64,000 nt of DNA, taken from positions 128,080-192,079 of the forward strand of contig CAWGTL010000010.1 in NCBI GenBank assembly GCA_963825505.1, in the 5' to 3' direction. The notes under the pieces are model-generated. The model ran no database searches, was not told where the DNA came from, and was given only the letters and a program-made list of their open reading frames with translations. Shown here in pieces: positions 19,800-64,000 of this stretch (the first letter of the stretch is position 1; every line of letters starts with the position of its first letter). Origin of the DNA: an uncultured Actinomycetota bacterium. GTDB lineage: Bacteria; Actinomycetota; Actinomycetes; Actinomycetales; CAWJMD01. A program made the position numbers and the translations under genes.

Positions 19800-19838
19800 C
19801 CGGCTACAAGTGGGTCTGAGCGGAGTCTGAGGGGACCG

Positions 19839-22040: not shown

Positions 22041-22636
22041 TCGTCGCGCTGTTCGTCCTCGGCCTGGTCCTGGTGCCGCTGACAGGCGGCACCTACCGCG
22101 GGCTGGTCGACCTGCGGCTGCGGCTGCGATGGCTGGTGCTGATCGCCTTCGCGCTGCAGTTCCTGGTGCTCCAGGGCCCGGCCGTCCTCGACCCCGTCGG
22201 TCCGGTGCTGCACGTGCTCACCTACGGCGCGGCCGGCGTCTTCGTGGCGGCGAACCGCCGGGTCCCCGGGCTGCTGGTCGTCGCAGCCGGGGCCGCGTGC
22301 AACGGCGTGACCATCGCCCTCAACGGCGGCACCCTGCCCGCGTCCGCGTCGGCGCTGCGCACGGCCGGCATCGAGGTCGGCGAGGGCTTCGTCAACTCCG
22401 GCGTCGTCCACGACCCCGTTCTGCCGTGGCTCGGCGACGTCTTCGCCGTCCCGTCGGGCGTGCCGTTCGCGAACGTCTTCAGCGTCGGCGACGTGCTGAT
22501 CGTCGCCGGCGCCTGGTGGCTGATCTGGGCCACCACCCGCCGTCGCGCCGACGCCGGGGGCAGCGGTCAGGCCAGCGCCGACCTGACCGCCGACAGCGGG
22601 ACGTCGAGCCAGTCGGGGCGGTTCCGGGTCTCGTAG
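22034..22636 (+). CDS. DUF5317-like integral membrane protein, translationally coupled to the GGDEF-EAL gene
   Basis: GTG 22034 overlaps the upstream stop (GTGCTGA). Contains LNGGTLPASASAL, FVNSGVV and VFSVGDVLIVAGAWWLIW. The 3' end overlaps the convergent mak gene by about 70 nt. Confidence 0.6.
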   Translation: MLIVALFVLGLVLVPLTGGTYRGLVDLRLRLRWLVLIAFALQFLVLQGPAVLDPVGPVLHVLTYGAAGVFVAANRRVPGLLVVAAGAACNGVTIALNGGTLPASASALRTAGIEVGEGFVNSGVVHDPVLPWLGDVFAVPSGVPFANVFSVGDVLIVAGAWWLIWATTRRRADAGGSGQASADLTADSGTSSQSGRFRVS

Positions 22637-23958: not shown

Positions 23959-23960
23959 GC

Positions 23961-26129: not shown

Positions 26130-26240
26130 GCTACCGAGGGCGACGCCGGGGGCGCGATCCGGAGCAACTTCTTGCACCACGCGCAACGTCTTGCCGGGCC
26201 CCGGCGTGTCGGCCTCCGGGCTCCCGTACGCTGCCCCGTC

Positions 26241-28805: not shown

Positions 28806-28832
28806 GGGCGGGAGCTCGGGACCGGGCACAGG

Positions 28833-31046
28833 TCAGGTGCGGTAGAGCCGCACCGTCCGACCGGGCAGCGCCACCGTCGTGCCGCCGTCGGCCCGCTCCG
28901 GGAGCGGATCGCCGGCGGCATGGGCGGCGCTGTCCCACAGCGGTTCCCACGCCGAGCCCCACGGCTCGCCGGGCAGCGTCACCTCGACCGGGTCGTGGTG
29001 GCCCTGGACGACGAGCAGCACCGCGGGCCCGCCGAGCGGGTGGCCGTGCAGGAACATCTGCAGCGTCCGCAGCACCGGGTCGTGCCAGCGGTCGTGGTCC
29101 ATCGGACGGCCGTCGGGGCCGAACCAGGCGAGGTCGGTGGTCCCGTCCTCGTGCACGGTCCGTCCGTTGGGGCGGGTGGCCTGGCGCAGCGGGGCGAGCT
29201 CACGCCGCAGCGCGGTCAGGCGGCGCACGGCCTCGCGCGTCGAGCGGCCGGTGGCGGTGAGGTCCCAGTCGACCCAGGTGGTCTCGTCGTCGAGGCAGTA
29301 GGCGTTGTTGTTGCCGCCCTGGCTGCGGGCGATCTCGTCGCCGGCGAGCAGCATCGGCGTGCCGGTCGACAGCAGCAGCGTCGACAGCAGCGCCAGCCCG
29401 GACGCGTGCCGCGACCGCAGCACGGCCTCGTCGCCGGTCGGGCCCTCCACGCCGTGGTTCCACGAGCGGTTGTCGTTGTGGCCGTCGCGGTTGCCCTCGC
29501 CGTTGGCGCCGTTGTGCTTGTGCGCGTAGGCGGTGGTGTCGGCGAGGGTGAAGCCGTCGTGCGCCGACACGAAGTTGACGCTCGCCCAGGCCGACCGGGC
29601 CACCCGGTCCGCCGAGGCTGCGGTCGCGAAGTGGTCCGACGACCCCGCGAGCCGGGTGGCGAGGTCGCGCAGGTCCGAGCGCGGGTGGCCGTCCGAGGCG
29701 CCGAGGGCGTGGGCGGCGTCGGCCAGCCAGAACGACCGGACGGCGTCCCGGAACCGGTCGTTCCACTCGGCGAACGGCGGCGGGAACTGACCGGTGCGCC
29801 ACCCGTGCGTACCGACGTCCCACGGCTCCGCGACGAGCTTGACGCCCTGCAGCACCGGGTCGGCGCGGGCCGCCACGAGGAACGGGTGGTCGGGCTTGAA
29901 CGAGTCGGCGCCACGGCGCGAGTCGCCGCGAGCCAGCGCGGGGGCGAGGTCGAACCGGAAGCCGTCGACCCCGTACGTCTGCACCCAGTGCCGCAGCGAG
30001 TCCAGGGCCAGCGCCACCACCCGCGGGTGCGAGAAGTCGACGGTGTTGCCGCAGCCGGTGACGTCGAGGTCCCGACCGTGCTCGTCCATCCGGTAGTACG
30101 AGGCGTTGTCGATCCCGCGGAAGGACAGCGTCGGCCCGTCGGCCCCCGCCTCGCAGGTGTGGTTGTAGACGACGTCGAGCCAGACCTCGAGCCCGGCCTC
30201 GTGCAGGGCGTCGACGGCACCGACGATCTCCGCGGCCACCGCTGCCGCCCCGGCCGAGCGCGAGGCCGCGGTGGCGTACCGCGGCTCGGGTGCGAAGAAG
30301 GACAGGTGGTTGTAACCCCAGTAGTTGCGCATCCCGCGCTGCACCAGCGCCGGCTCGTCGCCCACCGCGAACACCGGGAGCAGCTCGACCGCGGTGACGC
30401 CGAGACCCACGACGTGCTCCACCACGGCCGGGTGCGCGAGCCCCGCCCAGGTGCCGCGCAGCTCCTCCGGGACGTCCGGGTGGCGCATCGTCAGTCCCCG
30501 CAGGTGGGCCTCGTAGACCACGGTGCGGTCCCACGGCACGTCCGGACGGGCGCTCCGGGGCGGGTCGGTCGGAGCGAGCAGGATGCCCGTGGGGGCGTGG
30601 CCGAGGCTGTCGGTGGAGTCCTGCCAGCGAGCACCGCCGTGCGCCGCCGGACCGTCCTGCGGACGCCACTGGTCGTCGACGACGTGCCCGAAGACCGGCT
30701 GCCCCCAACGGATCTCACCACTGACCGCGCGGGCGTACGGGTCGATCAGCAGCTTGGCGGGGTTGTGCCGATGACCTGCCGTGGGGTCCCACGGACCGTG
30801 CACGCGCAGCCCGTACCGCTGGCCGGGGCGCGCACCCGGCACGTGCCCGTGCCAGACGCCGTCGGTGCACCGGGGCAGGGTCGTCCGGGACTCGGCGCCG
30901 TCGTCGTCGAGCAGGCACACCTCGACCTGCTCGGCGTGGGCGGCGAAGACCGCCGCGTCGGCGCCGTCCCCGTCCGCGCGCAGGTGCACGCCCAGCGGGT
31001 ACGGCCGGGTGCTCACGGCGGCGGACGCGCCGCTCGGTGCTGTCAC
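28833..31046 (-). CDS. glgX: Glycogen debranching enzyme GlgX (GH13)
   Basis: YPLGVHL, NYWGYN, VVYNHT, GFRFDLA, VAEPWD and NFVSAHDGFTL motifs. GTG 31046 chosen because the ORF extension upstream overlaps the neighbouring gene. Confidence 0.92.
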   Translation of the reverse strand: MTAPSGASAAVSTRPYPLGVHLRADGDGADAAVFAAHAEQVEVCLLDDDGAESRTTLPRCTDGVWHGHVPGARPGQRYGLRVHGPWDPTAGHRHNPAKLLIDPYARAVSGEIRWGQPVFGHVVDDQWRPQDGPAAHGGARWQDSTDSLGHAPTGILLAPTDPPRSARPDVPWDRTVVYEAHLRGLTMRHPDVPEELRGTWAGLAHPAVVEHVVGLGVTAVELLPVFAVGDEPALVQRGMRNYWGYNHLSFFAPEPRYATAASRSAGAAAVAAEIVGAVDALHEAGLEVWLDVVYNHTCEAGADGPTLSFRGIDNASYYRMDEHGRDLDVTGCGNTVDFSHPRVVALALDSLRHWVQTYGVDGFRFDLAPALARGDSRRGADSFKPDHPFLVAARADPVLQGVKLVAEPWDVGTHGWRTGQFPPPFAEWNDRFRDAVRSFWLADAAHALGASDGHPRSDLRDLATRLAGSSDHFATAASADRVARSAWASVNFVSAHDGFTLADTTAYAHKHNGANGEGNRDGHNDNRSWNHGVEGPTGDEAVLRSRHASGLALLSTLLLSTGTPMLLAGDEIARSQGGNNNAYCLDDETTWVDWDLTATGRSTREAVRRLTALRRELAPLRQATRPNGRTVHEDGTTDLAWFGPDGRPMDHDRWHDPVLRTLQMFLHGHPLGGPAVLLVVQGHHDPVEVTLPGEPWGSAWEPLWDSAAHAAGDPLPERADGGTTVALPGRTVRLYRT

Positions 31047-31079
31047 GGGAGCAGTGTGGCCGACGGTTACCGTGGACCG

Positions 31080-31520
31080 GTGAGCGACCCGACGTCCGTT
31101 CCCAGCTTCCCGCCGCCCGCCGACGAGCACCCCCTGCGCGGACGGGTGCTCGACGTCCTGGTCGACGACGGCCTCGCCCCGAGCCTGGACGACGACGGCG
31201 ACGTCGCGTTCCTCACCGCCGAGCAGAAGCTCTTCGTCCGCTGCGTCGACGCCGACCCGGCCCTGATGCGCGTGTTCGGCCAGTGGCGCATCACCGCGCC
31301 CGCGGAGCACGACGAGGTCGACTGGCTGCGGGCCGCCAGCGTGGTGAGCGCCACCCACAACCTGGCCAAGCTCAGCGTGCACGGCGGGGTGCTCGTGGTG
31401 GCGGTCGACTCGGTGGTGACCGAGGGGGCCGACCTCCCGGTGCTGGTCCGCACGAGCGTGCAGGCGGTCCTGGCCGCGGTCGGCGGCTGGCACGAGCAGG
31501 TCGAGGGCACTGCCTCCTGA
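31080..31520 (+). CDS. YbjN-domain (T3SS-chaperone-like) protein
   Basis: 146 aa from GTG 31080 in the frame of ORF 28920-31520. Contains DDDGDVAFLTAEQKLFVRCVDADPALMRVFGQWRI. Confidence 0.5.
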   Translation: MSDPTSVPSFPPPADEHPLRGRVLDVLVDDGLAPSLDDDGDVAFLTAEQKLFVRCVDADPALMRVFGQWRITAPAEHDEVDWLRAASVVSATHNLAKLSVHGGVLVVAVDSVVTEGADLPVLVRTSVQAVLAAVGGWHEQVEGTAS

Positions 31521-42464: not shown

Positions 42465-42506
42465 CGCGACAGGACGGAAACTTCCTGAGCCTGTGGGCTT
42501 GTCGCG
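42465..42506 (+). promoter_or_regulatory. Conserved upstream motif CGCGACAGGACGGAAACTTCC plus downstream inverted half TGTCGCG
   Basis: Gap-free alignment to the sites at 59214-59234 and 59707-59727, with 14 of 21 positions invariant. CGCGACA pairs with TGTCGCG and CAGGA pairs with TCCTG. Confidence 0.55.
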
Positions 42507-42533
42507 GTGCGCACCTCGCTGCACCGTGTGCTC

Positions 42534-43475
42534 ATGAGCACAGAGACCTTCCAGGGGGCGGACGTCCAGGCGCTGCGCGCGCTGCGGACGACGATGCAGG
42601 GCGTCGTGGCCGAGCTGCAGCGCTCGGCCGCCACGACGTCGTCGGCGCTGGACGCGCTGGCGTGGGCCGGCAACGACCAGTCGTCGTTCCGCACGGCGTG
42701 GACCGAGTGGTTCCGTCCGGTGATGCAGTCGGTGTCCGACGCCGTCACCCGCGCCGCCGACCAGGTGGAGGCCAACGCGGCCGACCAGGAGCGGGCCAGC
42801 GCCGACAACGGCACCGGTGGGACCGGCGGCACGACGGGCACGACCCTCGGCGCCCGCACCGACCCGGACCTCGGCGCGCTGAGCCGGCAGTACGAGTCCA
42901 ACGGCGACCCCGGCACGGTCTCCACCGGACGCGGCGACCGCGGCGGCGTCTCCTACGGGATGTACCAGTTCTCGTCCACCCAGGGCTCGGTGCAGGAGTT
43001 CGTCCGCGGGCTGCGCGACACGCACCCGGAGTACTACGCGGCCCTGAACGGGTTGCGCCCCGACACCCCCGAGTTCAACGCGGCCTGGCGCGAGCTCGCG
43101 CGCACCGACCCGACGGGCTTCGCCGCCGCGCAGCACGAGGCGATCGAGCGCACCCACTACACGCCGCAGCTCACGGCGACCGAGCAGCGGATCCCGGGCC
43201 TGGACTTCGAGCAGCGCTCGCCGGCACTGCGCGACGTGCTGTGGTCGACGTCGGTGCAGCACCGGCGGATGACCGACGACATCTTCGAGCGGGCGCTGGC
43301 CGGCCGCGACCCGGCGACGTTGACCGACGCCGAGATCATCCGGTCCGTCTACGCAGAGCGCGGGCGCGACAACGGGATGGCGTACTTCTCCGGCAGCAGC
43401 GCGGCCGTCAGGCGGGGTGTGGTCAACCGGTTCCGCAACGAGGAGCGCGACGCGCTGGGGATGCTCGGGCAGTAG
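42534..43475 (+). CDS. WXG100-like N-terminal domain fused to a lysozyme/chitosanase-fold (VgrG3-C-like) peptidoglycan hydrolase domain
   Basis: N-terminus is paralogous to the WXG100 protein at 60874 (LAWAGNDQSSFRTAW, ADQERAS). Gly/Thr linker. C-terminal YESNGDPGTVSTGRGDRGGVSYGMYQFSS and AYFSGSSAAVRRGVVNRFRNE. ATG 42534 preferred; GTG 42507 is possible. Confidence 0.65.
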   Translation: MSTETFQGADVQALRALRTTMQGVVAELQRSAATTSSALDALAWAGNDQSSFRTAWTEWFRPVMQSVSDAVTRAADQVEANAADQERASADNGTGGTGGTTGTTLGARTDPDLGALSRQYESNGDPGTVSTGRGDRGGVSYGMYQFSSTQGSVQEFVRGLRDTHPEYYAALNGLRPDTPEFNAAWRELARTDPTGFAAAQHEAIERTHYTPQLTATEQRIPGLDFEQRSPALRDVLWSTSVQHRRMTDDIFERALAGRDPATLTDAEIIRSVYAERGRDNGMAYFSGSSAAVRRGVVNRFRNEERDALGMLGQ

Positions 43476-43504: not shown

Positions 43505-45664
43505 TCAGGAACGCGGCAGCTGCGCGGGCACGGCGTCGTCGACGCGCAGCCGCTGCAGGGACGACAGCCACTGCTCGCTCCACGCGACCACCGCGTCGGC
43601 GGCCATCGGACGGGCGACGTGCCAGCCCTGCGCCTGGTCGCAGCCCAGGGTGGTCAGGCGGTCGAGCACCTGGCCGGTCTCGACGCCCTCGGCGACCACG
43701 GTGAGGCCGAGAGCGTGCGCGAGCTCGGCGACCTTGGCGACGATCGCCTGGTCCATGTCGGAGTCGACGGCGCGGCTGACGAAGGAGCGGTCGAGCTTGA
43801 CCTCGTCGACGGGCAGGCTGCGCAGCATCAGCAGCGAGGACCAGCCGGTGCCGAAGTCGTCCATCGACAGCACGACGCCGAGGTTCTTGAGCTGCACCAT
43901 CGAGCGGCGGGCGCCGGCGAGGTCGTGGGCCAGGACCCGCTCGGTGACCTCGAGGGTCAGCATGGACGGCGGGATCGCGTGCCGGCGCAGGCGGGCGGCG
44001 ACGCCGTCGACGAAGTCGGGCTCGAGCAGGTCGCGCAGCGACACGTTGACGGCGACCGGCGCCTCCAGCCCCTGCCGCCGCCAGGCGGCGCACTGGGTGA
44101 GCGCCATCTCCAGGACGGCGTCGGTGACCTGCGGCATCAGCCCGGACTGCTCGGCGGCGGGGATGAACTCGTCCGGCGGGACGGTGACACCGGAGGGGTG
44201 CCGCCAGCGCACCAGCGCCTCGACGCCGACCAGCTGCCGCCCGGCGAGGTCGATCTTGGGCTGGTACTCCAGGTAGAGCTCCTCGAGCTCGAGCGCGCGA
44301 CGCAGCGACCCGAGGATGCCGAGCCGGGTCATCGAGACGGCGGCGGCGGTGGGGTCGAACACGGCGCAGCCGAGCTGCTCGCGCTTGGCGGTGTACATCG
44401 CGACGTCGGCGCGGGACAGCAGCGTCTCGAGGTCGAGGCCGTGCTCCGGCGCCATCGCGATGCCGACGCTGGCGTCGATGTCGATCAGCTGGCCGCCGTC
44501 GTGGGTGTACGGCTTTCGCAGCACCTCGCCGATCGCCTCGCCGGCGGCCACGGCGGCGGCCGCGTCCGGTACCTCGAGCAGGACGGTGAACTCGTCGCCG
44601 CCGAGGCGGGCGACGAGCTCGGCCGCGGGCAGGGCCTCGGTGAGCCGGGCCGCCACCTCCTGGAGCACCCGGTCGCCGGTGGCGTGGCCGAGGACGTCGT
44701 TGACCTCCTTGAACCGGTCGAGGTCGAGCAGCAGGATCGCGAGCTGGGGGACGTCGCCCTCGGCGAGGGTCCGCAGGGCCTTGCGGGTGGTGCCGTTGAA
44801 CTGCGACCGGTTGGCCAGGCCGGTGAGGTCGTCGTGCAGCGCGGCCCACTCGTTCTTCATCTGGCCGGCGGCGGACAGGTGGATGGCGGCGACCGGGATC
44901 ACGGCGAGGATCGTCATCAGCGGCGAGACGACCATCATCGCGGCGACCATCGGCCCCATCGCCAGCTGCGAGCCGTTGACGGAGATCTCGAACAGCAGGG
45001 TCGAGCGGAACTCGTTCCAGAACCGGGTGGCCGTCATCTGGCCGATGACGAAGCTGACGACCACCTCGTTGACCAGGAAGTACGCGACGGCCGCGAGCAG
45101 GCAGACCAGGAGCTCGAACGGCGACGACGGGTGCCACGGCTGGTCGAGCGAGGCGTGGACGCCGAACAGGTGCAGCACGGCGTCGGCGGCGAAGATCGAC
45201 AGGCCGTACTGGCCGGCGTTGAACGCGAGCCGGAACGGCGCGTGCCGGTCGAGCAGGCCGGACAGCAGCGTGGCGATCGTCAGCAGGATGACGGCCGGGA
45301 GGGCGTCGAACGCGATGAGCAGGGCGAAGGCGAAGGGGGTCGACCAGGACACGCCGGTGGGGTCCTTGAACCGGGTGCCGATCACCGGCAGCAGCTCGCC
45401 GCCCAGGATCAGGACGACGGCGGAGGCGAGGGCGACCCAGGTCGTGCCGGAGACCAGGCCGAACGAGGGCAGCGGGTCGGTGACGAGCTTCCAGGCCACG
45501 AGGGCGGCCGCCAGCGCCGGCGCGCCCCACACCGTCGCCCAGAAGGCGATGGGGTCGGGGGGCTGCGGCCGGTTCCGGGCACGGCTGGCGGCGACCAGCT
45601 CGTCCGTGGTGGCGGTCGACATCAACCTCTCCGGCTCGCGCGGGTGCGACCGGTCGGTCGGCAC
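43505..45664 (-). CDS. Membrane-bound GGDEF-EAL protein, paralogue of the 19839 gene
   Basis: N-terminal polytopic domain with FNAGQY. ARLGGDEFTVLL. EAL motifs VEALVRWRHP, VAVNVS, EVTER, DDFGTGWSSL, KLDRSF, AEGVETGQ and QGW. ATG 45622 is an alternative start. Confidence 0.9.
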   Translation of the reverse strand: MPTDRSHPREPERLMSTATTDELVAASRARNRPQPPDPIAFWATVWGAPALAAALVAWKLVTDPLPSFGLVSGTTWVALASAVVLILGGELLPVIGTRFKDPTGVSWSTPFAFALLIAFDALPAVILLTIATLLSGLLDRHAPFRLAFNAGQYGLSIFAADAVLHLFGVHASLDQPWHPSSPFELLVCLLAAVAYFLVNEVVVSFVIGQMTATRFWNEFRSTLLFEISVNGSQLAMGPMVAAMMVVSPLMTILAVIPVAAIHLSAAGQMKNEWAALHDDLTGLANRSQFNGTTRKALRTLAEGDVPQLAILLLDLDRFKEVNDVLGHATGDRVLQEVAARLTEALPAAELVARLGGDEFTVLLEVPDAAAAVAAGEAIGEVLRKPYTHDGGQLIDIDASVGIAMAPEHGLDLETLLSRADVAMYTAKREQLGCAVFDPTAAAVSMTRLGILGSLRRALELEELYLEYQPKIDLAGRQLVGVEALVRWRHPSGVTVPPDEFIPAAEQSGLMPQVTDAVLEMALTQCAAWRRQGLEAPVAVNVSLRDLLEPDFVDGVAARLRRHAIPPSMLTLEVTERVLAHDLAGARRSMVQLKNLGVVLSMDDFGTGWSSLLMLRSLPVDEVKLDRSFVSRAVDSDMDQAIVAKVAELAHALGLTVVAEGVETGQVLDRLTTLGCDQAQGWHVARPMAADAVVAWSEQWLSSLQRLRVDDAVPAQLPRS

Positions 45665-53768: not shown

Positions 53769-56123
53769 ATGGTCGGCGACAGGGCGTTCCTCGCCGCGCG
53801 ACGAGGTCACCTCGTCCCGCTCGCGGGTGTGCCTCTGGCCGCCGCCGCCCTGGTGCTCCGCGGCGCCGTGGAGGGCGAGCCGTACGCCCTGACCTCGGCC
53901 CTGGCGCTGGCAGGCTGCATCGCCGTGCTCGGTGGGGCCGCCGTGGCCGCGCTGGGCATCCGGTCCAGCGGTCTGCAGTGGTTCCGCATCCTGCTCGGGG
54001 CGGCCGCGATCGTCTTCGGCACCGGCCAGCTGCTGGTCGCCTGGCAGGTCCAGGGCGGCCACCCGGGGTACCCGACGTGGGGCGACCTGGTCTCCGGGTT
54101 CGCGGTGGTCCCGGCCGTGCTCGGCATCGCGCTGGTCCCGCGCCGGACCCGCGAGGCCGGCCGCGCGCTGCGCCTGGTGCTCGAGGGCCTGATGATGGGC
54201 AGCGCCGCCGGGCTGCTGCTGTGGCGCACGGTGCTGATGGACGTGGTCGACACGCCCGACGTCGAGCTCAGCTCGCTCGCGATGCTCGTGCTCGAGATCG
54301 TCGTCGCCTCGATCGCCGTCATCGCCGCCGTCCGCGAGCTCGACCGCGGGCTGGTGCTGCTGGCCGGCGGCTTCTCCCTCTACACCGTCTTCGACGTGGT
54401 CGCGGTCCACGCGGTCCTGCAGGGCCGGCCGTGGCCGTTCGTGAGCGCCCTGGCCGGCTGCGTGGTCTGGCCCTTCATCATCGCGGGTCTGAGCACGATC
54501 AGCGCCAGACCGCGCGAGATGCCCGAGCGCCGGCTCCCCGGTGCGGAGACCCGGCGGCAGGTCGTCGTGGGCGGCGCGTCCACGCTGATGCTCCTGGTGG
54601 CGCTGGTCTCGTTCGTCGACTCGCCGGGGCTCGACACCACCGGCCTGGTGCTCTCGATCGTCTTCGTCGTCGCCTTCGGCGCGTGCGAGCTCGTGCGCGC
54701 GCAGCAGAACCGTCGCCTGCTCGAGCGGCTCGCGGGACTCGCCGGTCGCGACCCGCTCACCGGCGTGCGCAACCGACGTGCGCTGTCCGAGCGCCTGGAC
54801 GAGCTCGCCGGGGGGCGGCCGTCGTCGCGGTCGAGCGACAGCGGCTGGTGGTTCCTCACCCTCGACCTGGACGGGTTCAAGGACGTCAACGACATGCTCG
54901 GCCACGAGACCGGCGACCTGGTGCTCCAGCTGGTCGCCAAGGCGCTCGAGGACCACGTGGGCAACGACGGTGCCGACGTCTTCCGCCTCGGTGGCGACGA
55001 GTTCGGGGTCCTGGCCTCCGGCACCGAGACCGAGGTGCGGGAGCTGGCCGAGTCGCTGCTCGTGGCGGTCTCGCGCAGCGTGCGCGGCGCCCCGGGCGTC
55101 GCGCGCCTCGACGTCTCGGTGAGCATCGGCGCCGACCGGCTCCGGCTCGGCACCGGCACCCGCGCCACCCAGGTGGGCATCGCGGCCTCCGGACAGGCGA
55201 TGCGCCAGGCCAAGCGGGACGGGCGCGGCCGCGTCGTCGTGTTCAGCGAGCCGCTCGCCGCCCGCAGCCGCCGCCGCCAGCTGATGGAGCGCCAGCTGCG
55301 CGACACCATCGCGGCAGGAGGCGTCGACGTGCACTTCCAGCCGGTCTACGACGTGTGGACGGGCTACCTCACCGGCGTCGAGGCGCTGGCCCGCTGGAAC
55401 GACCCCGTCCTCGGCGACGTCAGCCCGGGCGAGTTCATCGAGGTCGCGGAGGAGTCGGGCCTCATCGGCGAGATGGGCCAGCAGATCATGCGCAAGGCGC
55501 TGCGGCTGATGGTGGGCTGCGGCGGCGTGGGCCGCGGCGTCCGGGTCGCGGTCAACGTCTCGACGATCCAGCTGCGCGACCCGTCCTTCGTCGGCTTCGT
55601 CAAGCAGGCGCTCGTGGAGGTCGGCGTCGAGCCGGCCACGCTCGTGCTCGAGGTGACCGAGTCGGTCTTCGTCCGCCCGGACGACCCGGCCGTGCAGTCG
55701 ATCACGCGTCTGGCCGAGCACGGGTGCACCGTCGCCATGGACGACTTCGGCTCGGGCTACTCCTCGCTCGGGTACCTCAGCCGGCTGCCCGTGAAGATCC
55801 TCAAGGCCGACATGTCGCTGACGCGGCAGCTGCACGAGCCGCGGACGCTCGCGATCGGGCGGACCATCGTCCAGCTGGCGGCGGGTCTCGGCCTCGACGT
55901 CGTCTTCGAGGGCGTCGCCACCCCGCAGCAGGAGGCCCTCGTGCGCGGCCTCGGCGCCCAGTACGTGCAGGGCTGGTTGTACGCCCGGGCGATGCCCGTC
56001 GAGGAGCTCGTCGCCGAGATGGACCGCAGCTGCGCCCCTCTGCCCGGCGGGACCACCGCGCTGCCCGCCGCTCCGCGCCCCCGGCGCCCGGCCGACGGCC
56101 AGCGCTGGGCCAGCGCCGGCTGA
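53769..56123 (+). CDS. Membrane-bound GGDEF-EAL protein (third in the window)
   Basis: Polytopic N-terminus. FRLGGDEFGVLA. EAL domain with VEALARWNDP, VAVNVS, EVTES and DDFGSGYSSL, but KADMSL and FEGVATPQ in place of the usual KIDxSF and AEGVET. Confidence 0.88.
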   Translation: MVGDRAFLAARRGHLVPLAGVPLAAAALVLRGAVEGEPYALTSALALAGCIAVLGGAAVAALGIRSSGLQWFRILLGAAAIVFGTGQLLVAWQVQGGHPGYPTWGDLVSGFAVVPAVLGIALVPRRTREAGRALRLVLEGLMMGSAAGLLLWRTVLMDVVDTPDVELSSLAMLVLEIVVASIAVIAAVRELDRGLVLLAGGFSLYTVFDVVAVHAVLQGRPWPFVSALAGCVVWPFIIAGLSTISARPREMPERRLPGAETRRQVVVGGASTLMLLVALVSFVDSPGLDTTGLVLSIVFVVAFGACELVRAQQNRRLLERLAGLAGRDPLTGVRNRRALSERLDELAGGRPSSRSSDSGWWFLTLDLDGFKDVNDMLGHETGDLVLQLVAKALEDHVGNDGADVFRLGGDEFGVLASGTETEVRELAESLLVAVSRSVRGAPGVARLDVSVSIGADRLRLGTGTRATQVGIAASGQAMRQAKRDGRGRVVVFSEPLAARSRRRQLMERQLRDTIAAGGVDVHFQPVYDVWTGYLTGVEALARWNDPVLGDVSPGEFIEVAEESGLIGEMGQQIMRKALRLMVGCGGVGRGVRVAVNVSTIQLRDPSFVGFVKQALVEVGVEPATLVLEVTESVFVRPDDPAVQSITRLAEHGCTVAMDDFGSGYSSLGYLSRLPVKILKADMSLTRQLHEPRTLAIGRTIVQLAAGLGLDVVFEGVATPQQEALVRGLGAQYVQGWLYARAMPVEELVAEMDRSCAPLPGGTTALPAAPRPRRPADGQRWASAG

Positions 56124-58363: not shown

Positions 58364-59200
58364 ATGCTGAGGGTGACGCTGCGGGGGGCGGGGGTGCCGG
58401 CCGCCGTGCTGGGCACGGGGGACCGGCTGCTGTTCGGCCGGGCACCGGGTGAGCGCCTCGACGGGCTCGACCCCGACTCCCAGCTGAGGCTCACCACGCT
58501 CGCGCTGCCCCGCACCGCGCCGCACGTCTCGCGGGTGGTCGGCGAGGTCGTCGTGGGCGAGGAGATGGTGCGGCTGCGCTGGCACGGGTCGACCGAGGCC
58601 CAGCTGTCGAGCCTGTTCGACGCCCCAGGCGGCGCGCGCAGGGTCGCTCTGGCGCAGGGGATGTCGGCCTTCCTCGACGAGGGCGAGAACCACCTGCTGC
58701 TGCTGCGCGGCCGGGAGACCGCGCAGGGCCGGTACACCGACCTCGTCCTGGTGGTCGTCGTCGACGACGTGGAGCAGGAGCAGGCGACCGAGCCCGGCGA
58801 GGAGCCCTCGGCCGACCTCGACGCCGCTCCCACGGCCCCCGCCCCCCGGCTGGAACCCCGGTCGCGGGAGTGGTTCGTCGCGCTGGCGCTGGCGGAGCCG
58901 TGGCTCACGGGGGCCGACGACTACCCCCGCCCGCCCTCGAACCGCGAGGTGTACGAACGGGTCCGACGCTGGCACGGCTACGCCTGGAACCTCGACCGCG
59001 CCCAGCGGGTCGACGACGCCATCCGGGTCGTGGCCCGGATGGCGTTCGGGCCGCAGGACGACCCGTTCACCTCCACCGCCGGCCGGGTCCAGAACGTGCG
59101 GTTCGCGGTCGGCCGCCGCGCGGCGGAGGTGCGGCTGGTCACGGTCGACCAGCTCGAGCAGGTCGAGGCCGAGGCGGCCGCCCGTCCGGTCCGCCACTGA
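58364..59200 (+). CDS. Hypothetical protein with an FHA-like N-terminal region
   Basis: GDRLLFGRAPGERLD ... ALPRTAPHVSRVVGEVVV ... WHGSTEAQL resembles the FHA core (GR ... SR.H ... GS). Acidic linker. C-terminal domain not recognised. Confidence 0.45.
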   Translation: MLRVTLRGAGVPAAVLGTGDRLLFGRAPGERLDGLDPDSQLRLTTLALPRTAPHVSRVVGEVVVGEEMVRLRWHGSTEAQLSSLFDAPGGARRVALAQGMSAFLDEGENHLLLLRGRETAQGRYTDLVLVVVVDDVEQEQATEPGEEPSADLDAAPTAPAPRLEPRSREWFVALALAEPWLTGADDYPRPPSNREVYERVRRWHGYAWNLDRAQRVDDAIRVVARMAFGPQDDPFTSTAGRVQNVRFAVGRRAAEVRLVTVDQLEQVEAEAAARPVRH

Positions 59201-59213
59201 CGAGATCCGGTTC

Positions 59214-59253
59214 GGCGACAGGGAGGAACGTTCCGGCGCGCTCGCCCTGTCGC
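59214..59253 (+). promoter_or_regulatory. Conserved upstream motif GGCGACAGGGAGGAACGTTCC plus inverted half CCCTGTCGC
   Basis: Shares the G.GACAG-N3-GGAA-N2-TTCC core with the sites at 42465 and 59707. GCGACAGGG pairs with CCCTGTCGC (9 bp). The inner GGAACGTTCC is itself a perfect palindrome. Confidence 0.55.
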
Positions 59254-59313
59254 GCCGCCCTCGCGCCGTGCGAGGGTCGGCGGACGCCAGCAGAGACGAC
59301 ACCGGGAGGGGCC

Positions 59314-59604
59314 ATGGTCGACAGGAGCCAGTTCTACGGGATGGACACCGAGAGCTCGCGCGAGGGAGCCCGGCAGCTCGACTCCGGCGCGACCGAGGTG
59401 CAGGGCATGCTCGATCTCGCCAACCAGGCGATCCAGGCGCTGCGCAGCTCGCCGTACGGCGCTGCCGGCCCCGGCTTCGCTCAGTGGGACCAGACCTGGA
59501 CCGGCGAGGTCAACCCCCAGCTGCAGCGCGCCGTCGAGAACCTGCGCAGCAACGCCTCCGAGCTGAACCGGCGCGCGCAGATGCAGGAGGAGGCCAGCGC
59601 CTGA
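59314..59604 (+). CDS. WXG100-like small helical protein (96 aa)
   Basis: GGGAGGGG SD. W-x-G at QTWTGEV. Predicted helix-turn-helix length. C-terminal QMQEEASA is similar to the DDQERASS of the 60874 protein. Confidence 0.7.
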   Translation: MVDRSQFYGMDTESSREGARQLDSGATEVQGMLDLANQAIQALRSSPYGAAGPGFAQWDQTWTGEVNPQLQRAVENLRSNASELNRRAQMQEEASA

Positions 59605-59627: not shown

Positions 59628-59657
59628 CAGCCGCCGTCCCGACCGGGACGGCGGCTG
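59628..59657 (+). terminator. Perfect 13-bp stem hairpin CAGCCGCCGTCCC-GACC-GGGACGGCGGCTG after the first WXG gene
   Basis: Begins 24 nt after the stop codon. Followed by a CTGCTGCTGTGCTGC tract with only scattered T and no clean U-run. Confidence 0.55.
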
Positions 59658-59706: not shown

Positions 59707-59727
59707 CGGGACAGACCGGAACCTTCC
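59707..59727 (+). promoter_or_regulatory. Third copy of the conserved motif: CGGGACAGACCGGAACCTTCC
   Basis: Same strand and order as the other two copies, 98 nt upstream of ATG 59825. A CCTGTC inverted half follows at 59760-59765. Confidence 0.5.
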
Positions 59728-59824
59728 ACCCCTCCCGCTCTGGCGCGGGACCGCCCCGACCTGTCAGCGTCTGCGGCACAGGCAGTTTCGAGGCTCGGTA
59801 CGCCGGGCGAGGGGAGGTGGGACG

Positions 59825-60799: not shown

Positions 60800-60873
60800 C
60801 GCACGCGCAGTAGCTCGACGCCCGTTTCCACATCCGGTTCCACCAGACACCCACGCACAGAAGGAGAACCACC

Positions 60874-61140: not shown

Positions 61141-61245
61141 TCGGCCGCTGAACCCGCCGACCGGCGGCGGACCCGCCCTCGCGGCGGCCGCCGCCGGCCG
61201 GCACGTCCGGCCCCGTCTCTCACGCACTCGTCCAGGAGGTCCGCC

Positions 61246-64000
61246 GTGTGGCGACTGAGCATCGTGCCCACCGAGGGCACGGGCCTGACCGGCGCCGACG
61301 TCGTCGTGCACGCCGAGCCGGGCGCCCGCGTGGTCGACCTGGCGGGTGTGCTGGCCGAGCACCTCGGCGGAGGGGCCGCCGCCGCCCCGCCGCTCCTGGT
61401 CCCGCTCGTGGACGGCGGGGTGTGGCCGGCCGACCGGCGGCTGTTCGACTGCGGCCTGCGCCAGGGGGACGTGCTCGAGGTGACCTCCGTGCCGGCCTCG
61501 TGGCGCACGACGCCGGCGCGTACCCGGCGCACCACCGCCACCGTGCGGGTCGTGGCCGGACCCGACGCCGGGAAGAGCGTCCGGGTCGACGGCGACAGCC
61601 TCACCGTCGGACGCAGCCGCGAGTGCACGGTGCGGCTGTCGGACCCGCTCGTCAGCCGGGTGCACACCCGCGTCCTGCTCAGCGGCGGGCCGGTGGTCAG
61701 CGACGAGGGCTCTGCCCACGGCACCCGGGTCGGTGGCCACGAGGTGGTGCGCCCGCAGGCGGTCGGGTGGGGGGAGCGCGTCGACCTCGGCGGCAGCGCC
61801 TTCGTGGTCGAGCCGCCCGACGGCGGCGCGGCCCGGGCCGACGACGGCGTCGCCGTCCTGCGCCCGCCGCGCTTCGGCGAGGCGGTCGACGAGCTCGAGC
61901 TCGACACCCCGACCCCACCCAGCCGCCCGAAGCCGCAGCCGCCCCCGTGGGCGATGCTCGCCATGCCGGTGGTGCTCGGCGGCGCGCTGTTCCTCTCCGG
62001 CCGCAGCACCTACGCGCTGGTGTTCGTCGTCGGCTGGCCGGTGATCATGCTCATCACCTGGCTGACCGCCCGGCGCCAGCAGCGCAAGGAGTTCGAGCGC
62101 GAGCTCGCGGCCTGGCGGGAGGACATGCAGGCCGTGCTCGACCAGCTCGACCACGCTGCGACCGTCCAGCGCGAGCACGCCGAGGACGACGACCCCGACG
62201 TCGACGTCGTGCGGTCCCGGGTGGTCTCGCGCGACCGCCGGCTCTGGGTGCGCGGTCCCGACGACGACGACTTCGGCCTGGTCCGCGTGGGCCGCGGCGG
62301 GGTGCCCGCCAAGGTCACCGGCAAGCGGTCCTCCAGCGGGGACCGCGAGGTGCTGCTCGAGGCCCGCGAGCTGCTGTCGTCGCGCACCGTCCTGGAGCAG
62401 ATGCCGGTGACCGTGCCGGTGCTCGAGCACGGCGTGGTCGCGGTGACCGGCGACCCGGACGAGCTCGACGCCGCCGTCCGCGCGATGGTGCTGCGGCTCG
62501 CCGGAGGCCACTCACCGGCCGAGGTGCAGCTCGTCGCGCTGCTCGGCCGCGGCCGCGAGCACCTGGAGAGCTGGCTGCGCTGGCTGCCGCACTGCGCACC
62601 GCGCAGCGGCGGGGTCGCGCCGGTGGCGGTGGGTCCCGTCGAGGCCACGCCTCTGCTCGAGGTGCTCGCGGCGGAGGGCGCCGGACGCGGGCGGACGGTC
62701 TGCCTGGTCGACGCCGGCTGCGGTCTGCCGCGGCGCGTGGTCGAGGCCGCAGCGGCCGCAGGGCCCGAGCAGGGCCTGCACCTGATCTGGTTCGGGACGG
62801 CGGCCGACGAGATCCCCTCCCGCACAGCCGTGCACGTCGACCTCCGGGCGAAGCGGGTCGAGCAGGCCGGTCGACGCGGACGGGTGGAGCTCGACAGCAC
62901 CGACGCGGTCGGGCTCGTCCCCGCCTGGCACGCCGCGCGCGGCATGACCGGCTACCAGGACGCCGTCGCGCTCGTGCAGCCCGACTCGGCCCTGCCCGAG
63001 CAGGTGCGCCTGCCGGACCTCGGCACCGACCTGCGCAGCTGCGACGACGTCGACACCGTGCTCGGCCGCTGGACCGCGGCGCGCGGCCTGCGGGCCCAGA
63101 TCGGTTCCGGCGTCGACGGTGTCGTCACGCTCGACCTGCGCGAGGACGGCCCGCACGGTCTGGTCGCGGGGACGACCGGCTCGGGCAAGTCCGAGCTCCT
63201 GCAGACCCTGATCAGCTCGCTCGCGGTGAACAACCCGCCGACGCGGATCACCTTCCTGCTGGTCGACTACAAGGGCGGCGCGGCGTTCCGCGAGTGCGCC
63301 GACCTGCCCCACACGGTCGGGTACATCACCGACCTCACGCCGGCACTGGTGCAACGGGCGCTGGTGTCGCTGCACGCCGAGCTGACCCACCGCGAGGGCC
63401 TGCTCGCCGAGCACGGCGCCAAGGACCTGGTCGCGCTCGAGCGCGACCACCCGGAGGTGGCTCCACCCAGCCTGCTCATCTGCGTGGACGAGTTCGCCGC
63501 GCTCACCGCCGAGGTGCCGGACTTCGTCGACGGGATGGTGTCGATCGCCCAGCGGGGCCGCTCGCTCGGGATGCACATGCTGCTCGCCACGCAGCGCCCG
63601 GCCGGCGTCGTGACGCCCCAGATCAAGGCGAACACCGACCTGCGCATCGCCCTGCGGGTGGCCTCCGGCGACGACAGCACCGACGTCATCGACGCGCCCG
63701 ACGCGGCCCAGCTCTCCCGCCGCACGCCCGGACGCGCCTGGGTGCGGCGCACGGGTCACGGCACCACCGAGCTGGTCCAGGTGGCGTGGGTCGGCGGGCG
63801 CGAGCCCCTGCACGACGCCGCCGCCACCGTGCGGGTGGCACCGTTCTCGGCGCGCGACCTCGGCGGCGACGGCCAGGTGGCCGGCGAGCGCGTGCACCCG
63901 CGCTCGGACCTCGACCGCCTCGTCGGGACGACCACGGCCGCCTTCGTGCGGTCGGGCCTGCCCCAGCCGCGCCGGCCCTGGCTTCCGGCGCTCGGCCAGG
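61246..64000 (+). CDS. Type VII secretion FtsK/SpoIIIE-family ATPase (EssC/EccC-like) with N-terminal beta-grasp-like and FHA domains; 3' end outside the window
   Basis: CAGGAGG SD with GTG 61246. The frame stays open to the window end (checked codon by codon). FHA domain: LTVGRSRECTVRLSDPLVSRVHTRVLL...SDEGSAHGTRVGG. Two TM segments (AMLAMPVVLGGALFL, ALVFVVGWPVIMLITWL). ATPase motifs: Walker A GTTGSGKSE, Walker B LLICVDEFAAL, and LLATQRP. Confidence 0.85.
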   Translation, partial: MWRLSIVPTEGTGLTGADVVVHAEPGARVVDLAGVLAEHLGGGAAAAPPLLVPLVDGGVWPADRRLFDCGLRQGDVLEVTSVPASWRTTPARTRRTTATVRVVAGPDAGKSVRVDGDSLTVGRSRECTVRLSDPLVSRVHTRVLLSGGPVVSDEGSAHGTRVGGHEVVRPQAVGWGERVDLGGSAFVVEPPDGGAARADDGVAVLRPPRFGEAVDELELDTPTPPSRPKPQPPPWAMLAMPVVLGGALFLSGRSTYALVFVVGWPVIMLITWLTARRQQRKEFERELAAWREDMQAVLDQLDHAATVQREHAEDDDPDVDVVRSRVVSRDRRLWVRGPDDDDFGLVRVGRGGVPAKVTGKRSSSGDREVLLEARELLSSRTVLEQMPVTVPVLEHGVVAVTGDPDELDAAVRAMVLRLAGGHSPAEVQLVALLGRGREHLESWLRWLPHCAPRSGGVAPVAVGPVEATPLLEVLAAEGAGRGRTVCLVDAGCGLPRRVVEAAAAAGPEQGLHLIWFGTAADEIPSRTAVHVDLRAKRVEQAGRRGRVELDSTDAVGLVPAWHAARGMTGYQDAVALVQPDSALPEQVRLPDLGTDLRSCDDVDTVLGRWTAARGLRAQIGSGVDGVVTLDLREDGPHGLVAGTTGSGKSELLQTLISSLAVNNPPTRITFLLVDYKGGAAFRECADLPHTVGYITDLTPALVQRALVSLHAELTHREGLLAEHGAKDLVALERDHPEVAPPSLLICVDEFAALTAEVPDFVDGMVSIAQRGRSLGMHMLLATQRPAGVVTPQIKANTDLRIALRVASGDDSTDVIDAPDAAQLSRRTPGRAWVRRTGHGTTELVQVAWVGGREPLHDAAATVRVAPFSARDLGGDGQVAGERVHPRSDLDRLVGTTTAAFVRSGLPQPRRPWLPALGQ

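Follow-up and report, generated by a model that had tools for sequence, protein, structure and literature searches.

A palindromic motif as the probable operator of a tripartite promoter module at T7SS genes and a distant peptidoglycan hydrolase gene in Actinomycetales

A motif that occurs three times in 64 kb of actinobacterial DNA (the window, that is the whole stretch of 64,000 nucleotides analyzed) is probably an operator that forms the upstream part of a conserved three-block promoter, where it would serve as an activator-type site at the sigma-A-type promoters of a T7SS (Esx) regulon. In the preliminary description of this DNA a 21-nt element was taken as the unit as a whole; instead, the functional unit appeared to be about 55 nt long and to comprise operator, -35 and -10. 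Judged from the aligned sites, this module marks T7SS genes and scattered toxin genes in many actinobacterial genera. Its conservation, spacing, orientation, gene association and orthologue footprint were established. No earlier description of the motif was found in literature searches.

Results

Three copies of the motif in the window

The three 21-mer copies, all on the + strand, were located at 42465-42485 (site 1), 59214-59234 (site 2) and 59707-59727 (site 3), in agreement with the coordinates given before. The pattern GNGACAGNNNGGAANNTTCC with 14 specified bases had three exact matches in the 64-kb window, which corresponded to the 14 of 21 positions described as invariant. No match with one or two mismatches was present in the window, and the only match with three mismatches, at 22606, was at chance level in the window scan. 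The core GGAANNTTCC, that is GGAAnnTTCC, occurred three times in the window, always within the motif copies, while 0.09 occurrences were expected, and none of 100 shuffles reached a count of three. As had been stated, all copies were intergenic and on the same strand as the downstream gene; they ended 48, 79 and 97 nt upstream of ATG 42534, 59314 and 59825, respectively. A WXG100-like N-terminus is common to the products of all three downstream genes. Their coding N-termini were about 30-37% identical whereas the motif cores were identical, in line with the described greater divergence of the coding parts.

With the family matrix, site 1 scored 4 bits (inside the shuffle range), site 2 18.4 bits and site 3 37.2 bits, the last being far beyond every shuffle. 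Site 1, which is of the degenerate class without the ACCCC extension, is a weak copy by this family-wide matrix and appears credible only through its palindrome and the conservation in orthologues. Site 2 was kept in the closest relative (L001). The GACAG box was indeed invariant in the window copies, but only its AC dinucleotide was conserved outside the lineage, and site 2 of L001 reads GCACG at this place. The features of the window are collected in Table 1.

Table 1. Positions of the genes, operator blocks and predicted promoter elements in the window
Feature	Position	Strand	Description
Site 1 operator block	42465..42485	+	AC 42469-42470, then CGGAAACTTCC; palindrome core GGAAACTTCC at 42476-42485
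Site 1 predicted -35	42499..42504	+	TTGTCG; in register with T-n-G-a/c-c (positions 24-29) in the 74-site profile
Site 1 predicted -10	42522..42527	+	CACCGT; A2 and T6 kept; 17 nt beyond -35
Distal effector gene	42534..43475	+	WXG100-like N-terminus (~90 aa) and VgrG3-like C-terminal peptidoglycan hydrolase domain
cl5, conserved protein, 278 aa	58364..59200	+	N-terminal FHA fold, acidic linker, orphan five-helix C-terminal domain
Site 2 operator block	59214..59234	+	AC 59218-59219; perfect palindrome GGAACGTTCC at 59225-59234
Site 2 predicted -35	59248..59253	+	TGTCGC; family-profile register; identical in L001
Site 2 predicted -10	59272..59277	+	GAGGGT; 18 nt beyond -35
First WXG100 gene, 96 aa	59314..59604	+	Orthologues in related loci
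12-bp GC-rich hairpin	59630..59655	+	GCCGCCGTCCCG-AC-CGGGACGGCGGC; 3' of the first WXG gene; read from sequence
Site 3 canonical operator block	59707..59732	+	AC 59711-59712; CGGAACCTTCC-ACCCC; core 59718-59727, extension 59728-59732
Site 3 predicted -35	59741..59746	+	TGGCGC; family-profile register
Site 3 predicted -10	59765..59770	+	CAGCGT; family consensus TAGCGT; 18 nt beyond -35
Variable effector-like gene, 324 aa	59825..60799	+	WXG-like N-terminus MSGFQGSDVDAL...
Second WXG100 gene, 88 aa	60874..61140	+	57-74% identical to most close relatives' copies
EssC/EccC-type FtsK/SpoIIIE ATPase, N-terminal FHA	61246..64000	+	GTG 61246, MWRLS...; extends past window end

The T7SS locus and its type

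The product of the first WXG100 gene scored below threshold with both Pfam WXG100 (18.7 bits, cut-off 27.3) and NCBIfam TIGR03930 (23.3, cut-off 44.85), and no known C-terminal domain was found in the product of the variable effector-like gene. The hairpin between these two genes was kept in L001, where a C-to-T change yields a G-U pair. It was not called in a scan for T-tail terminators, and is likely a terminator which keeps the transcription unit of site 2 apart from that of site 3. A motif copy specific to EssC was not present in this window.

Two WXG100 genes and an EssC with FHA and FtsK domains are the Esx-Esr components contained in the window. The other Esx-Esr genes, beyond the window end, were found in the relatives L014 and L016, and in L001 via clustering. 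In relatives the locus type comprises FHA-EssC, an Fn3 surface protein, MoxR, DUF58, a transglutaminase and a Ser/Thr kinase, so that the locus, judged by gene content, matches an Esx-Esr type cluster. In a comparison of 51 loci, the conserved gene clusters included no sigma or anti-sigma gene.

The palindrome in related T7SS loci

In 49 related T7SS loci (896 kb), 108 GGAAnnTTCC palindromes were counted compared with 5.2 expected; 96 of them were intergenic, almost always in a single orientation, and the median distance from palindrome to start codon was 92 nt. The genes downstream of the 96 intergenic palindromes included 36 WXG100-like genes, 15 EssC genes and 9 WXG-effector genes. The enrichment ahead of WXG/T7SS genes, for which the preliminary description had proposed a test, was seen in these loci. 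The motif was also located ahead of EssC and Fn3 genes, which are non-paralogous to the WXG genes, and the palindrome preceded T7SS genes in dozens of genera. Cultivable carriers include Georgenia sp. 1P01AC, Actinotalea caeni, Pseudactinotalea terrae and Nocardioides spp.

A profile was built from 74 non-redundant related sites, 72 of which were used for the re-registered -10 block. The invariance of GGAA and TTCC in this profile is by construction, as they were the site-selection criterion, and C12-C13 were also in the selection pattern. Beyond these bases, conservation was found in the operator flanks (C0 in 68/74, A11 in 66/74 and C14 in 70/74), in the -35 block (T24 in 71/74 and G26 in 66/74) and in the re-registered -10 block (T in 67/72, A in 72/72 and T in 70/72). 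The resulting consensus was AC-N4-cGGAAnnTTCC(ACCCC) for block A, a weak -35 (T-n-G-a/c-c, positions 24-29) for block B, and cCTAgcgTC, that is TAnnnT, the classic actinobacterial -10, for block C. The gap between blocks A and B was 7 nt in 68 of 72 sites, and that between blocks B and C was 15-16 nt in 70 of 72.

The two central bases of the palindrome took all values among the 74 sites, and stand-alone perfect 12-mer copies CGGAAnnTTCCG were located 22-25 bp upstream in six loci; a free centre together with such stand-alone copies is typical of a dimer-binding site. Block A thus showed the properties of an operator, namely dyad symmetry, conserved half-sites and a free centre, in 74 sites that had been selected for GGAA/TTCC. 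A 17-base pattern of blocks A and B returned 120 loci from a large metagenome collection. Most were chance matches in low-GC DNA, and the informative ones were about 16 high-GC loci which also carried the -10 block. The chance matches in unrelated low-GC DNA indicated that, beyond these taxa, the short core has no diagnostic value by itself.

Predicted -35 and -10 elements

The TAnnnT form of a primary-sigma (sigma-A/HrdB-type) -10 was found in the 72 related sites. The three -10 hexamers of the window (CACCGT, GAGGGT and CAGCGT) were without the first T, with A2 and T6 present. The -35 was TTGACA-like with a weak match to the consensus. The spacer was 18 nt, but in the hydrolase class, whose -35 reads TTGTCG, it was 17 nt. 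A promoter scan based on the E. coli consensus gave no strong promoter at these sites, which is consistent with activator dependence. For site 2 a 5'UTR of about 30 nt was predicted, with the Shine-Dalgarno sequence GGGAGGGG at 59304-59311, and for site 3 one of about 48 nt, with GGGGAGG immediately upstream of the ATG. The interior and flanks of the -10 (CC-TAGCGT-C) were conserved beyond the needs of a generic primary-sigma -10, and this excess might reflect a dedicated sigma factor or an additional contact with protein.

The distal hydrolase gene and its orthologues

The C-terminus of the distal gene product was assigned to Pfam PF21277 (VgrG3-like peptidoglycan hydrolase) with E = 1.9e-53, and its N-terminal 90 aa aligned to WXG100 proteins with 30-37% identity. 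Protein P0121 was identical to this product and called from the same ATG, and one homologue of the hydrolase carries the NCBI name WXG100 family target. A WXG100-like N-terminal domain joined to a C-terminal toxin domain is the architecture of the WXG/LXG-type polymorphic T7SS toxins, and secretion of the product is predicted.

Four further orthologue loci, with three distinct sequences (identities of 82%, 64% and, for two loci, 47%), occupy three other genomic contexts. Alignment of the orthologous upstream regions revealed that the palindrome, the TTG of the -35 and the -10 were kept at all four further loci while the spacers differed; the site 1 operator block was kept in the upstream regions of L060-L064. 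In the five hydrolase sequences (window, L060, L062, L063 and L064) the TTG was invariant and the start codon followed the -10 by 6-8 nt; in the window, ATG 42534 stands 7 nt beyond CACCGT. The preliminary description was correct in noting no Shine-Dalgarno sequence ahead of this ATG. With no Shine-Dalgarno sequence and a start codon 6-8 nt past the -10, the mRNA of the distal hydrolase is predicted to be leaderless, which would explain the missing Shine-Dalgarno sequence. The palindrome at T7SS genes and at the four further hydrolase loci supported the proposal of one regulon for the distal gene and the T7SS locus, to which this distant cell-wall hydrolase gene very probably belongs.

A candidate regulator

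The gene of cl5, a highly conserved protein, adjoins site 2, and an invariant Thr is carried in a TAPAP motif of the cl5 linker. The FHA domain was the sole fold found by Foldseek on the AF2 full-length model. The C-terminal domain, modelled separately (pLDDT 84.5, net charge about 0), had no significant Foldseek match (best E = 4.3). No match was obtained in Pfam and NCBIfam searches with the 278-aa protein or in a PDB sequence-profile search, and nothing was found in a weak-match Pfam scan of 13 cl5 members. An exhaustive profile search returned 31 clusters only, each of which showed the cl5 architecture in full or in part, and no informative domain fusions. A DNA-binding fold was not detected in cl5, in which no HTH, winged-helix or SARP domain was recognisable. 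The protein co-occurs with the motif, and this co-occurrence also tracks phylogeny. As the only regulator candidate found, cl5 is put forward tentatively as a protein that may bind the palindrome, perhaps under control of the Ser/Thr kinase of the locus.

Discussion

The arrangement of the three blocks suggested a mechanism in which the palindrome (AC-N4-)cGGAAnnTTCC(g/ACCCC) would have its centre about 54 nt ahead of the predicted transcription start. It would be followed seven bases beyond the palindrome block by a weak -35, which reads TTGTCG in the hydrolase class and otherwise T-n-G-a/c-c, and 17-18 nt after the -35 by a housekeeping-type actinobacterial -10 (TAnnnT, or nAnnnT in the window). 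A putative dimeric transcription factor at the palindrome would aid primary-sigma RNA polymerase on these poor core promoters. In this way the factor may jointly switch on the genes for WXG100 substrates and WXG-tagged toxins, in relatives also that of the EssC ATPase, and orphan effector genes elsewhere in the genome. In the window, the module at 59214-59277 would drive the first WXG100 gene, and that at 59707-59770 the variable effector gene and probably also the second WXG100 gene and EssC. For the distal peptidoglycan hydrolase, the module at 42465-42527 would yield a leaderless mRNA starting at ATG 42534. From the sequences we infer where transcription starts, that the factor activates and does not repress, and which protein binds the palindrome.

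Several other explanations for the motif were weighed. The GGAA half could belong to an ECF-sigma promoter like the SigM promoters of mycobacterial ESX-4, with GGAAC as -35 and CTnGAC/TGTCG 17 nt downstream as -10. A GGAAC-like -35 with an A-rich stretch just upstream has been reported for M. abscessus SigM (PMC13491425), the distance of 18 nt from GGAA to block B is within the ECF range, and GTC stands at the expected -10 place in sites 1 and 2. This explanation is quite unlikely, because the C at position 5 of GGAAC was not conserved (C 35, G 27, A 8 and T 4 among 74 sites), and block B was without CGT/GTC consensus, its conserved bases being T24 and G26 (C-T-n-G). Moreover, all promoter copies contain TTCC, for which they were selected and which completes the palindrome, and an ECF -35 has no need of it; the model would explain neither the TAnnnT that stands 17-18 nt from block B nor the start codon that follows TAnnnT by 6-8 nt in the five hydrolase sequences; and no sigma or anti-sigma gene was among the conserved neighbours. 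The palindrome might also be the operator of a dimeric repressor which silences T7SS genes and toxins until a signal arrives, and the symmetry, the extra upstream copies in six loci, where looping or cooperative binding is possible, and the regulon-wide spread would fit equally. Repressors usually act over the -35, the -10 or the start, whereas the whole of this site, at about -60 to -45, precedes the -35 and in no case reaches into any of the three. The weak core promoters, with poor -35s, window -10s without the first T and no match in the consensus scan, argue for activation as well, and a repressor is considered unlikely.

The preliminary description had left the choice between an operator and an RNA stem, and selection on DNA or on RNA, open. 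Comparative conservation supported the DNA level and an operator as the kind of object, but the RNA part did not hold. A cis-acting stem in the 5' leader would pair GCGACA with TGTCGC and CAGGA with TCCTG, and complementary segments are present in the sequence at site 1 and partly at site 2. This pairing gained neither statistical nor comparative support: the folding z was -1.44 with 18 of 200 shuffles folding equally well, an Rfam search was without match, and 3.1 of 7 pairs were formed over 114 related sites compared with 2.9 in the null (shuffled partners and shifted registers). The pairing was lost in the closest orthologue, L060, which is 82% identical; a hairpin of GGAAnnTTCC itself is impossible with a 2-nt loop; and in the promoter model the element is upstream of the transcription start. 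The TGTCGCG that had been named as stem partner is instead placed in the -35 region of the site 1 promoter, and the stem is very improbable. Joint origin of gene and upstream region is made plausible by the shared WXG100-like N-termini, and the motif would then be a functionless leftover of gene duplication, copied along with the WXG genes. That is hardly credible in view of the identical cores ahead of diverged N-termini, the blocks kept across two orders of Actinomycetes with randomised spacers between them, and the occurrence ahead of the non-paralogous EssC and Fn3 genes.

The operator-based module resembles the SigM regulon of M. smegmatis and M. abscessus, which covers ESX-4 substrates and scattered effector loci (PMC13491425). 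In both, one short promoter signature is common to secretion-substrate genes and scattered effector or toxin loci and is usable to predict new T7SS substrates, and a GGAAC-like element has an A-containing stretch just upstream (PMC13491425). The SigM signature, however, is the -35/-10 of an ECF sigma with a dedicated anti-sigma, whereas no sigma or anti-sigma gene is linked here, and GGAA is half of a variable-centre palindrome upstream of a separate, housekeeping-type -35/-10.

The module is also similar to activator-dependent promoters in that a short or palindromic site lies upstream of a poor -35 and abuts it, at a constant spacing and always facing the gene in the same way. Such promoters of the sigma-70 family include those with CRP class I, PhoB/OmpR-type and WhiB7-type activation beside sigma-A region 4, and EmbR is a precedent for a transcription factor that contains an FHA domain and is controlled by a kinase. 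The present locus likewise encodes a Ser/Thr kinase and an FHA protein. A difference is that cl5, as the candidate, shows no HTH, winged-helix or SARP domain that could be recognised. We know of no factor that binds cGGAAnnTTCCg, and to our knowledge almost nothing is known about how actinobacterial T7SS are switched on outside mycobacteria.

The Esx-Esr (epibiont sensing and response) clusters of Actinomycetales have been described by Wang et al. (bioRxiv 2026, PMC13622651), and their Esx genes are transcriptionally induced in defence against epibiotic Patescibacteria. In that preprint no promoter motif and no DNA-binding factor were described, and the step from EsrG phosphorylation to transcription was stated as unknown (PMC13622651). 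The gene set in relatives of the present locus is like that of Esx-Esr clusters, with an FHA-bearing EccC/EssC, a large repeat-rich surface protein, a MoxR ATPase, a DUF58/vWA-type protein, a transglutaminase, a Ser/Thr kinase and an FHA output protein. EsrG1 differs from cl5 in architecture, the former being pseudophosphatase-IDR-FHA and the latter FHA-linker-orphan helical domain. It is conceivable, though rather doubtful, that cGGAAnnTTCCg is the missing cis-element of Esr threat sensing and that cl5 is a transcription factor of a new type, whose DNA binding or dimerisation is switched by Thr phosphorylation. The pathway would then induce Esx secretion in Actinomycetales and Propionibacteriales, with the locus kinase phosphorylating the invariant Thr in TAPAP.

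For the biology of these bacteria, the conserved promoter module offers a concrete DNA target for identifying the regulator, and its context offers cl5 as a specific candidate protein. It may also provide a route to T7SS effectors whose genes are remote from those for secretion; the leaderless peptidoglycan hydrolase of the window would carry its own promoter wherever it is inserted. If the Esr cis-element reading were true, a motif scan would predict the whole T7SS effector repertoire, orphan leaderless toxins included, in hundreds of genera.

Motif copies in the window and in related T7SS loci

All three 21-nt copies of the motif lay where the preliminary description had placed them, in intergenic DNA and on the coding strand. 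In the 64-kb window (74.5% G+C), the pattern G.GACAG...GGAA..TTCC (14 specified bases) had exactly three exact matches, no match at one or two mismatches, and one chance-level match at three. The ten-base core GGAANNTTCC was restricted in the window to sites 1-3 (0.09 copies expected), and none of 100 shuffles reached three copies. Alignment of the three upstream regions revealed a second shared box (TGTCGCG, TGTCGCG and TGGCGCG) 13-14 nt 3' of the motif. The gene behind site 3 was followed by a second WXG100 gene and then by an EssC/EccC ATPase gene with FHA domain.

For comparison, 59 loci encoding EssC relatives were used, one genome per species, including Actinotalea, Pseudactinotalea, Occultella, Georgenia, Serinibacter, Phytoactinopolyspora, Nocardioides, Rhodococcus rhodnii, Kibdelosporangium, Actinophytocola, and several Dermatophilaceae, Beutenbergiaceae and Ruaniaceae MAGs. 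The closest EssC, 99% identical, was that of an uncultured Actinomycetota MAG (L001; L-numbers denote related loci or contigs). Most loci with EssC at least 53% identical held one to five GGAAnnTTCC copies between genes of the T7SS region, oriented like those genes; those without it were five short, incomplete contigs. Across 49 non-redundant loci (896 kb), 108 copies were counted against 5.2 expected, 96 of them intergenic, including 36 within 260 nt 5' of WXG100-like genes, 15 before EssC, 9 before a WXG-N-terminal effector family and 29 before ORFs missed by the crude gene caller. The copies lay a median of 92 nt from the start codon. The ORFs missed at the 29 sites were equivalents of the window gene behind site 3. 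In the window this gene had a codon-position G+C signal far below its neighbours (score 11.5 vs 20-200) and homologues of its protein covered no more than the first ~90-100 residues, a pattern that fits a polymorphic effector evolving fast.

Coordinates of the motif copies and other features (window positions unless a related locus is named; -35 and -10 boxes predicted)
Feature	Position	Details
Site 1	42465-42485 (+)	palindrome 42476-42485; -35 TTGTCG 42499-42504; spacer 17 nt; -10 CACCGT 42522-42527
Gene after site 1	42534-43475	WXG100-like N-terminus plus VgrG3-like peptidoglycan hydrolase domain (PF21277, E = 1.9e-53)
Site 2	59214-59234 (+)	palindrome 59225-59234; -35 TGTCGC 59248-59253; spacer 18 nt; -10 GAGGGT 59272-59277
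Gene after site 2	59314-59604	WXG100 protein
Site 3	59707-59727 (+)	palindrome 59718-59727 plus ACCCC; -35 TGGCGC 59741-59746; spacer 18 nt; -10 CAGCGT 59765-59770
Extended -10 block, site 3	59763-59771	positions 46-54 after GGAA
Gene after site 3	59825-60799	effector-like protein, WXG-like N-terminus
Hairpin	59630-59655	GCCGCCGTCCCG-AC-CGGGACGGCGGC
Half-motifs	60825-60844	GTTTCCAC ATCCGG TTCCACC
Gap before EssC	61141-61245	105 nt; EssC GTG at 61246
cl5	58364-59200 (+)	280-aa protein
GGDEF-EAL proteins	19884-22040 (+); 43505-45664 (-); 53769-56123 (+)	first two also with MASE9 domain
flhA	5107-7113	FHIPEP, E = 1.7e-248
Glycogen/maltose cluster	16893-31493	GlgB, maltokinase, phosphorylase, second CBM48/alpha-amylase-family enzyme
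Upstream palindrome CGGAAnnTTCCG		L003 7188; L038 7017; L042 5582; L015 4461; L044 3746; L029 7626
GGAAGGTTCC inside EssC		L016 13903; L018 13903; L031 13900; other Nocardioides-type loci
Module before small predicted membrane protein		L073 1139; L095 924; L136 5580(-); soil metagenome contigs

Anatomy of the proposed promoter module

A profile of 74 non-redundant sites aligned on GGAA showed three blocks at fixed spacing, in which the bases of GGAA..TTCC[A/G]CC were fixed by construction because sites were selected for that pattern. Block A consisted of A(-6) C(-5), C0 (68/74), GGAA, two free bases, TTCC, A11 (66/74) and CCC(c). Block B followed after seven nt in 68 of 72 sites, with C23, T24 (71/74), n, G26 (66/74), a/c and c, and block C, 15-16 nt further on, read C-C-T-A-g-c-g-T-C (T in 67, A in 72 and T in 70 of 72 sites). 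Block C matches TAnnnT, the -10 of actinobacterial primary-sigma promoters, and block B (T-n-G-A-C-c), 18 nt 5' of it, would be a weak TTGACA-type -35; block A would then lie at about -60 to -45, with its dyad centre near -54. The -10 block was conserved past TAnnnT (CC-TAGCGT-C, interior G/C/G in 47-53 of 72 sites), which exceeds the needs of a generic primary-sigma -10. The free centre, conserved half-sites and stand-alone copies of the palindrome point to a putative dimeric DNA-binding protein. Six loci had a further perfect 12-bp palindrome, CGGAAnnTTCCG, 22-25 bp upstream of the canonical site and without blocks B and C; these extra copies suggest that two dimers bind cooperatively at some promoters. 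Among the 12 intragenic copies, 11 were one GGAAGGTTCC recurring at one position inside Nocardioides-type EssC; since blocks B and C were absent there, it was assigned to coding conservation, not to regulation.

Scored with a matrix built solely from other genomes, site 3 reached 37.2 bits, site 2 18.4 and site 1 4.0, the maxima of 20 shuffles being -0.8 to 18.4. Site 3 is the canonical copy; site 1, which kept the palindrome and AC without ACCCC, is degenerate, its score falling within the shuffle range. The predicted 5'UTRs at sites 2 and 3 were about 30 and 48 nt, both with a Shine-Dalgarno sequence. In most relatives a canonical motif of its own preceded EssC by about 90 nt; the gap before EssC in the window held none, and EssC therefore probably shares the transcript that starts at the site 3 promoter. 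A perfect 12-bp GC-rich hairpin directly 3' of the first WXG100 gene, retained in L001 with a C-to-T change giving a G-U pair, is probably a tail-less terminator between the site 2 and site 3 transcription units. Two TTCCAC half-motifs lacking the GGAA half, 5' of the second WXG100 gene, could be a decayed block A copy or coincidence.

Site 1 and the hydrolase orthologues

The distal hydrolase had an identical database copy (P0121), and relatives at 82%, 64% and 47% identity were traced to contigs. The mnmA / GGDEF-EAL / ligA neighbourhood was kept in L060 and L061; the contexts were acetyltransferase / HSP70 in L062, pyrimidine genes in L063 (Knoellia), and again different in L064. The comparison of orthologous upstream regions was positive: palindrome, -35 and -10 were kept before all traced orthologues as cGGAAnnTTCC, 13 nt, TTGTCG / TTGCTC / TTGTCC, 17 nt and nAnnGT, followed after about 6-7 nt by ATG or GTG, while the spacers between the boxes were scrambled in the alignment. 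Judged from these alignments, site 1 is credible by itself, and the module travels with the hydrolase gene. Of the GACAG box described as invariant, only the AC dinucleotide was conserved (GCACGGGAC in L060, GCACGGGGA at site 2 of L001). The ATG of the hydrolase gene is the 7th base after the predicted -10, and its mRNA is predicted to be leaderless, which would explain the missing Shine-Dalgarno sequence. Three GGDEF-EAL proteins were encoded in the 64 kb; one of their genes lay directly downstream of the hydrolase gene in convergent orientation, an arrangement conserved in L060.

Specificity outside the clade

When a metagenome collection was scanned with blocks A and B (17 specified bases), at least 120 loci matched. 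Most of the matches listed were chance occurrences in DNA of 40-65% G+C without block C; about 16 of those listed lay on contigs of at least 70% G+C with CTAnnnT at the right distance. Such three-block matches preceded WXG100 genes (L066, L116, L122, L179), WXG-N-terminal effectors (L076, L093, L111, L116, L134, L179), EssC (L125), an Fn3/EsrA-like protein (L139) and, instead of a WXG gene, a small predicted membrane protein, which may also belong to the regulon. What is specific is the combination of all three blocks; the short core is not.

The locus and a candidate binding protein

The conserved order in relatives was cl5, WXG100, variable WXG-effector, WXG100, FHA-EssC, an approximately 1100-aa Fn3-repeat protein, MoxR ATPase, DUF58, a transglutaminase-like protein and, on the opposite strand, a Ser/Thr kinase. 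This is the Esx-linked 'Esr' cluster of a September 2026 preprint (PMC13622651). Elsewhere in the window, the flagellar export gene flhA indicates a motile actinobacterium, and a glycogen/maltose cluster was present.

cl5 is the sole locus-specific candidate for the palindrome-binding protein. In nearly all loci its gene directly preceded the first promoter with the motif; cl5 was located elsewhere in L027 and L040, next to a palindrome and a WXG gene. Across families cl5 was 64-76% identical, compared with about 35-40% for the first WXG100 substrate. Every full-length locus with cl5 carried the motif, and both were missing from nine full-length loci whose EssC was distant (28-36% identity). 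Two Phytoactinopolyspora loci had the motif with cl5 absent within 10 kb; those species do have cl5 homologues (P0003, P0005). The AF2 model (pLDDT 80.6) showed an N-terminal FHA fold (Foldseek E about 3e-4 to PNKP, APLF and Rv0020c-type FHA domains), an acidic, variable linker and a five-helix C-terminal domain of near-zero net charge. Modelled alone (pLDDT 84.5, pTM 0.82), this domain had no significant structural neighbour (best E = 4.3) and no match in Pfam, NCBIfam or PDB sequences. When 1.84 billion representatives were searched exhaustively with a profile, only 31 clusters matched, always of the same architecture or fragments; this narrow distribution parallels that of the motif, but also phylogeny. 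Direct binding of the motif by cl5 is held to be rather unlikely, and cl5 could equally be a secretion accessory factor. An invariant Thr in TAPAP (residue 157), at the end of the acidic disordered linker, is a plausible phospho-acceptor for the locus Ser/Thr kinase and a plausible ligand for an FHA domain.

Discussion

The proposal that the distal gene shares one regulon with the secretion locus was strongly supported, the module being kept before T7SS genes and hydrolase orthologues alike. The alternative of an RNA element with a GCGACA/TGTCGC stem, previously left beside an operator, was rejected: Rfam gave no match, the 82-nt leader folded no better than shuffles (z = -1.44), and the two halves paired at 3.1 of 7 positions versus 2.9 with shuffled partners (114 sites), in no preferred register. 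A GGAA/TTCC hairpin is precluded by its 2-nt loop, and the promoter model places the element outside the transcript of its own promoter. An ECF promoter resembling those of SigM has a precedent in M. abscessus and M. smegmatis, where the promoters of esxU/esxT and of scattered effector operons, all driven by SigM, have a GGAACCG -35 preceded by an A-rich stretch (PMC13491425). Here, no more than 35 of 74 sites had the C of GGAAC; TTCC, not needed by an ECF -35, completed the dyad in every copy, block B lacked CGT, and no sigma or anti-sigma gene was among the conserved neighbours of related loci. Block C and the start codon following it in the hydrolase class would be left unexplained, and this reading is considered improbable.

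These results argue with high confidence for a module that acts at the DNA level, as a regulatory element or promoter, and that defines a T7SS regulon. The more specific model, in which an activator site is combined with a sigma-A promoter, is favoured with less assurance; here an operator, probably for an activator, would lie 5' of weak promoters of primary-sigma type. As a kind of element this is ordinary, but this member appears undescribed, a full-text literature search having found no earlier description. Contact with Saccharibacteria is reported to induce transcription of the Esx genes of Schaalia by way of a surface sensor, a kinase and an FHA output protein; the preprint mentions no promoter motif or DNA-binding factor and states that how phosphorylation alters transcription is not known (PMC13622651). 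The motif bears on that step of the Esx-Esr pathway, its transcriptional output.
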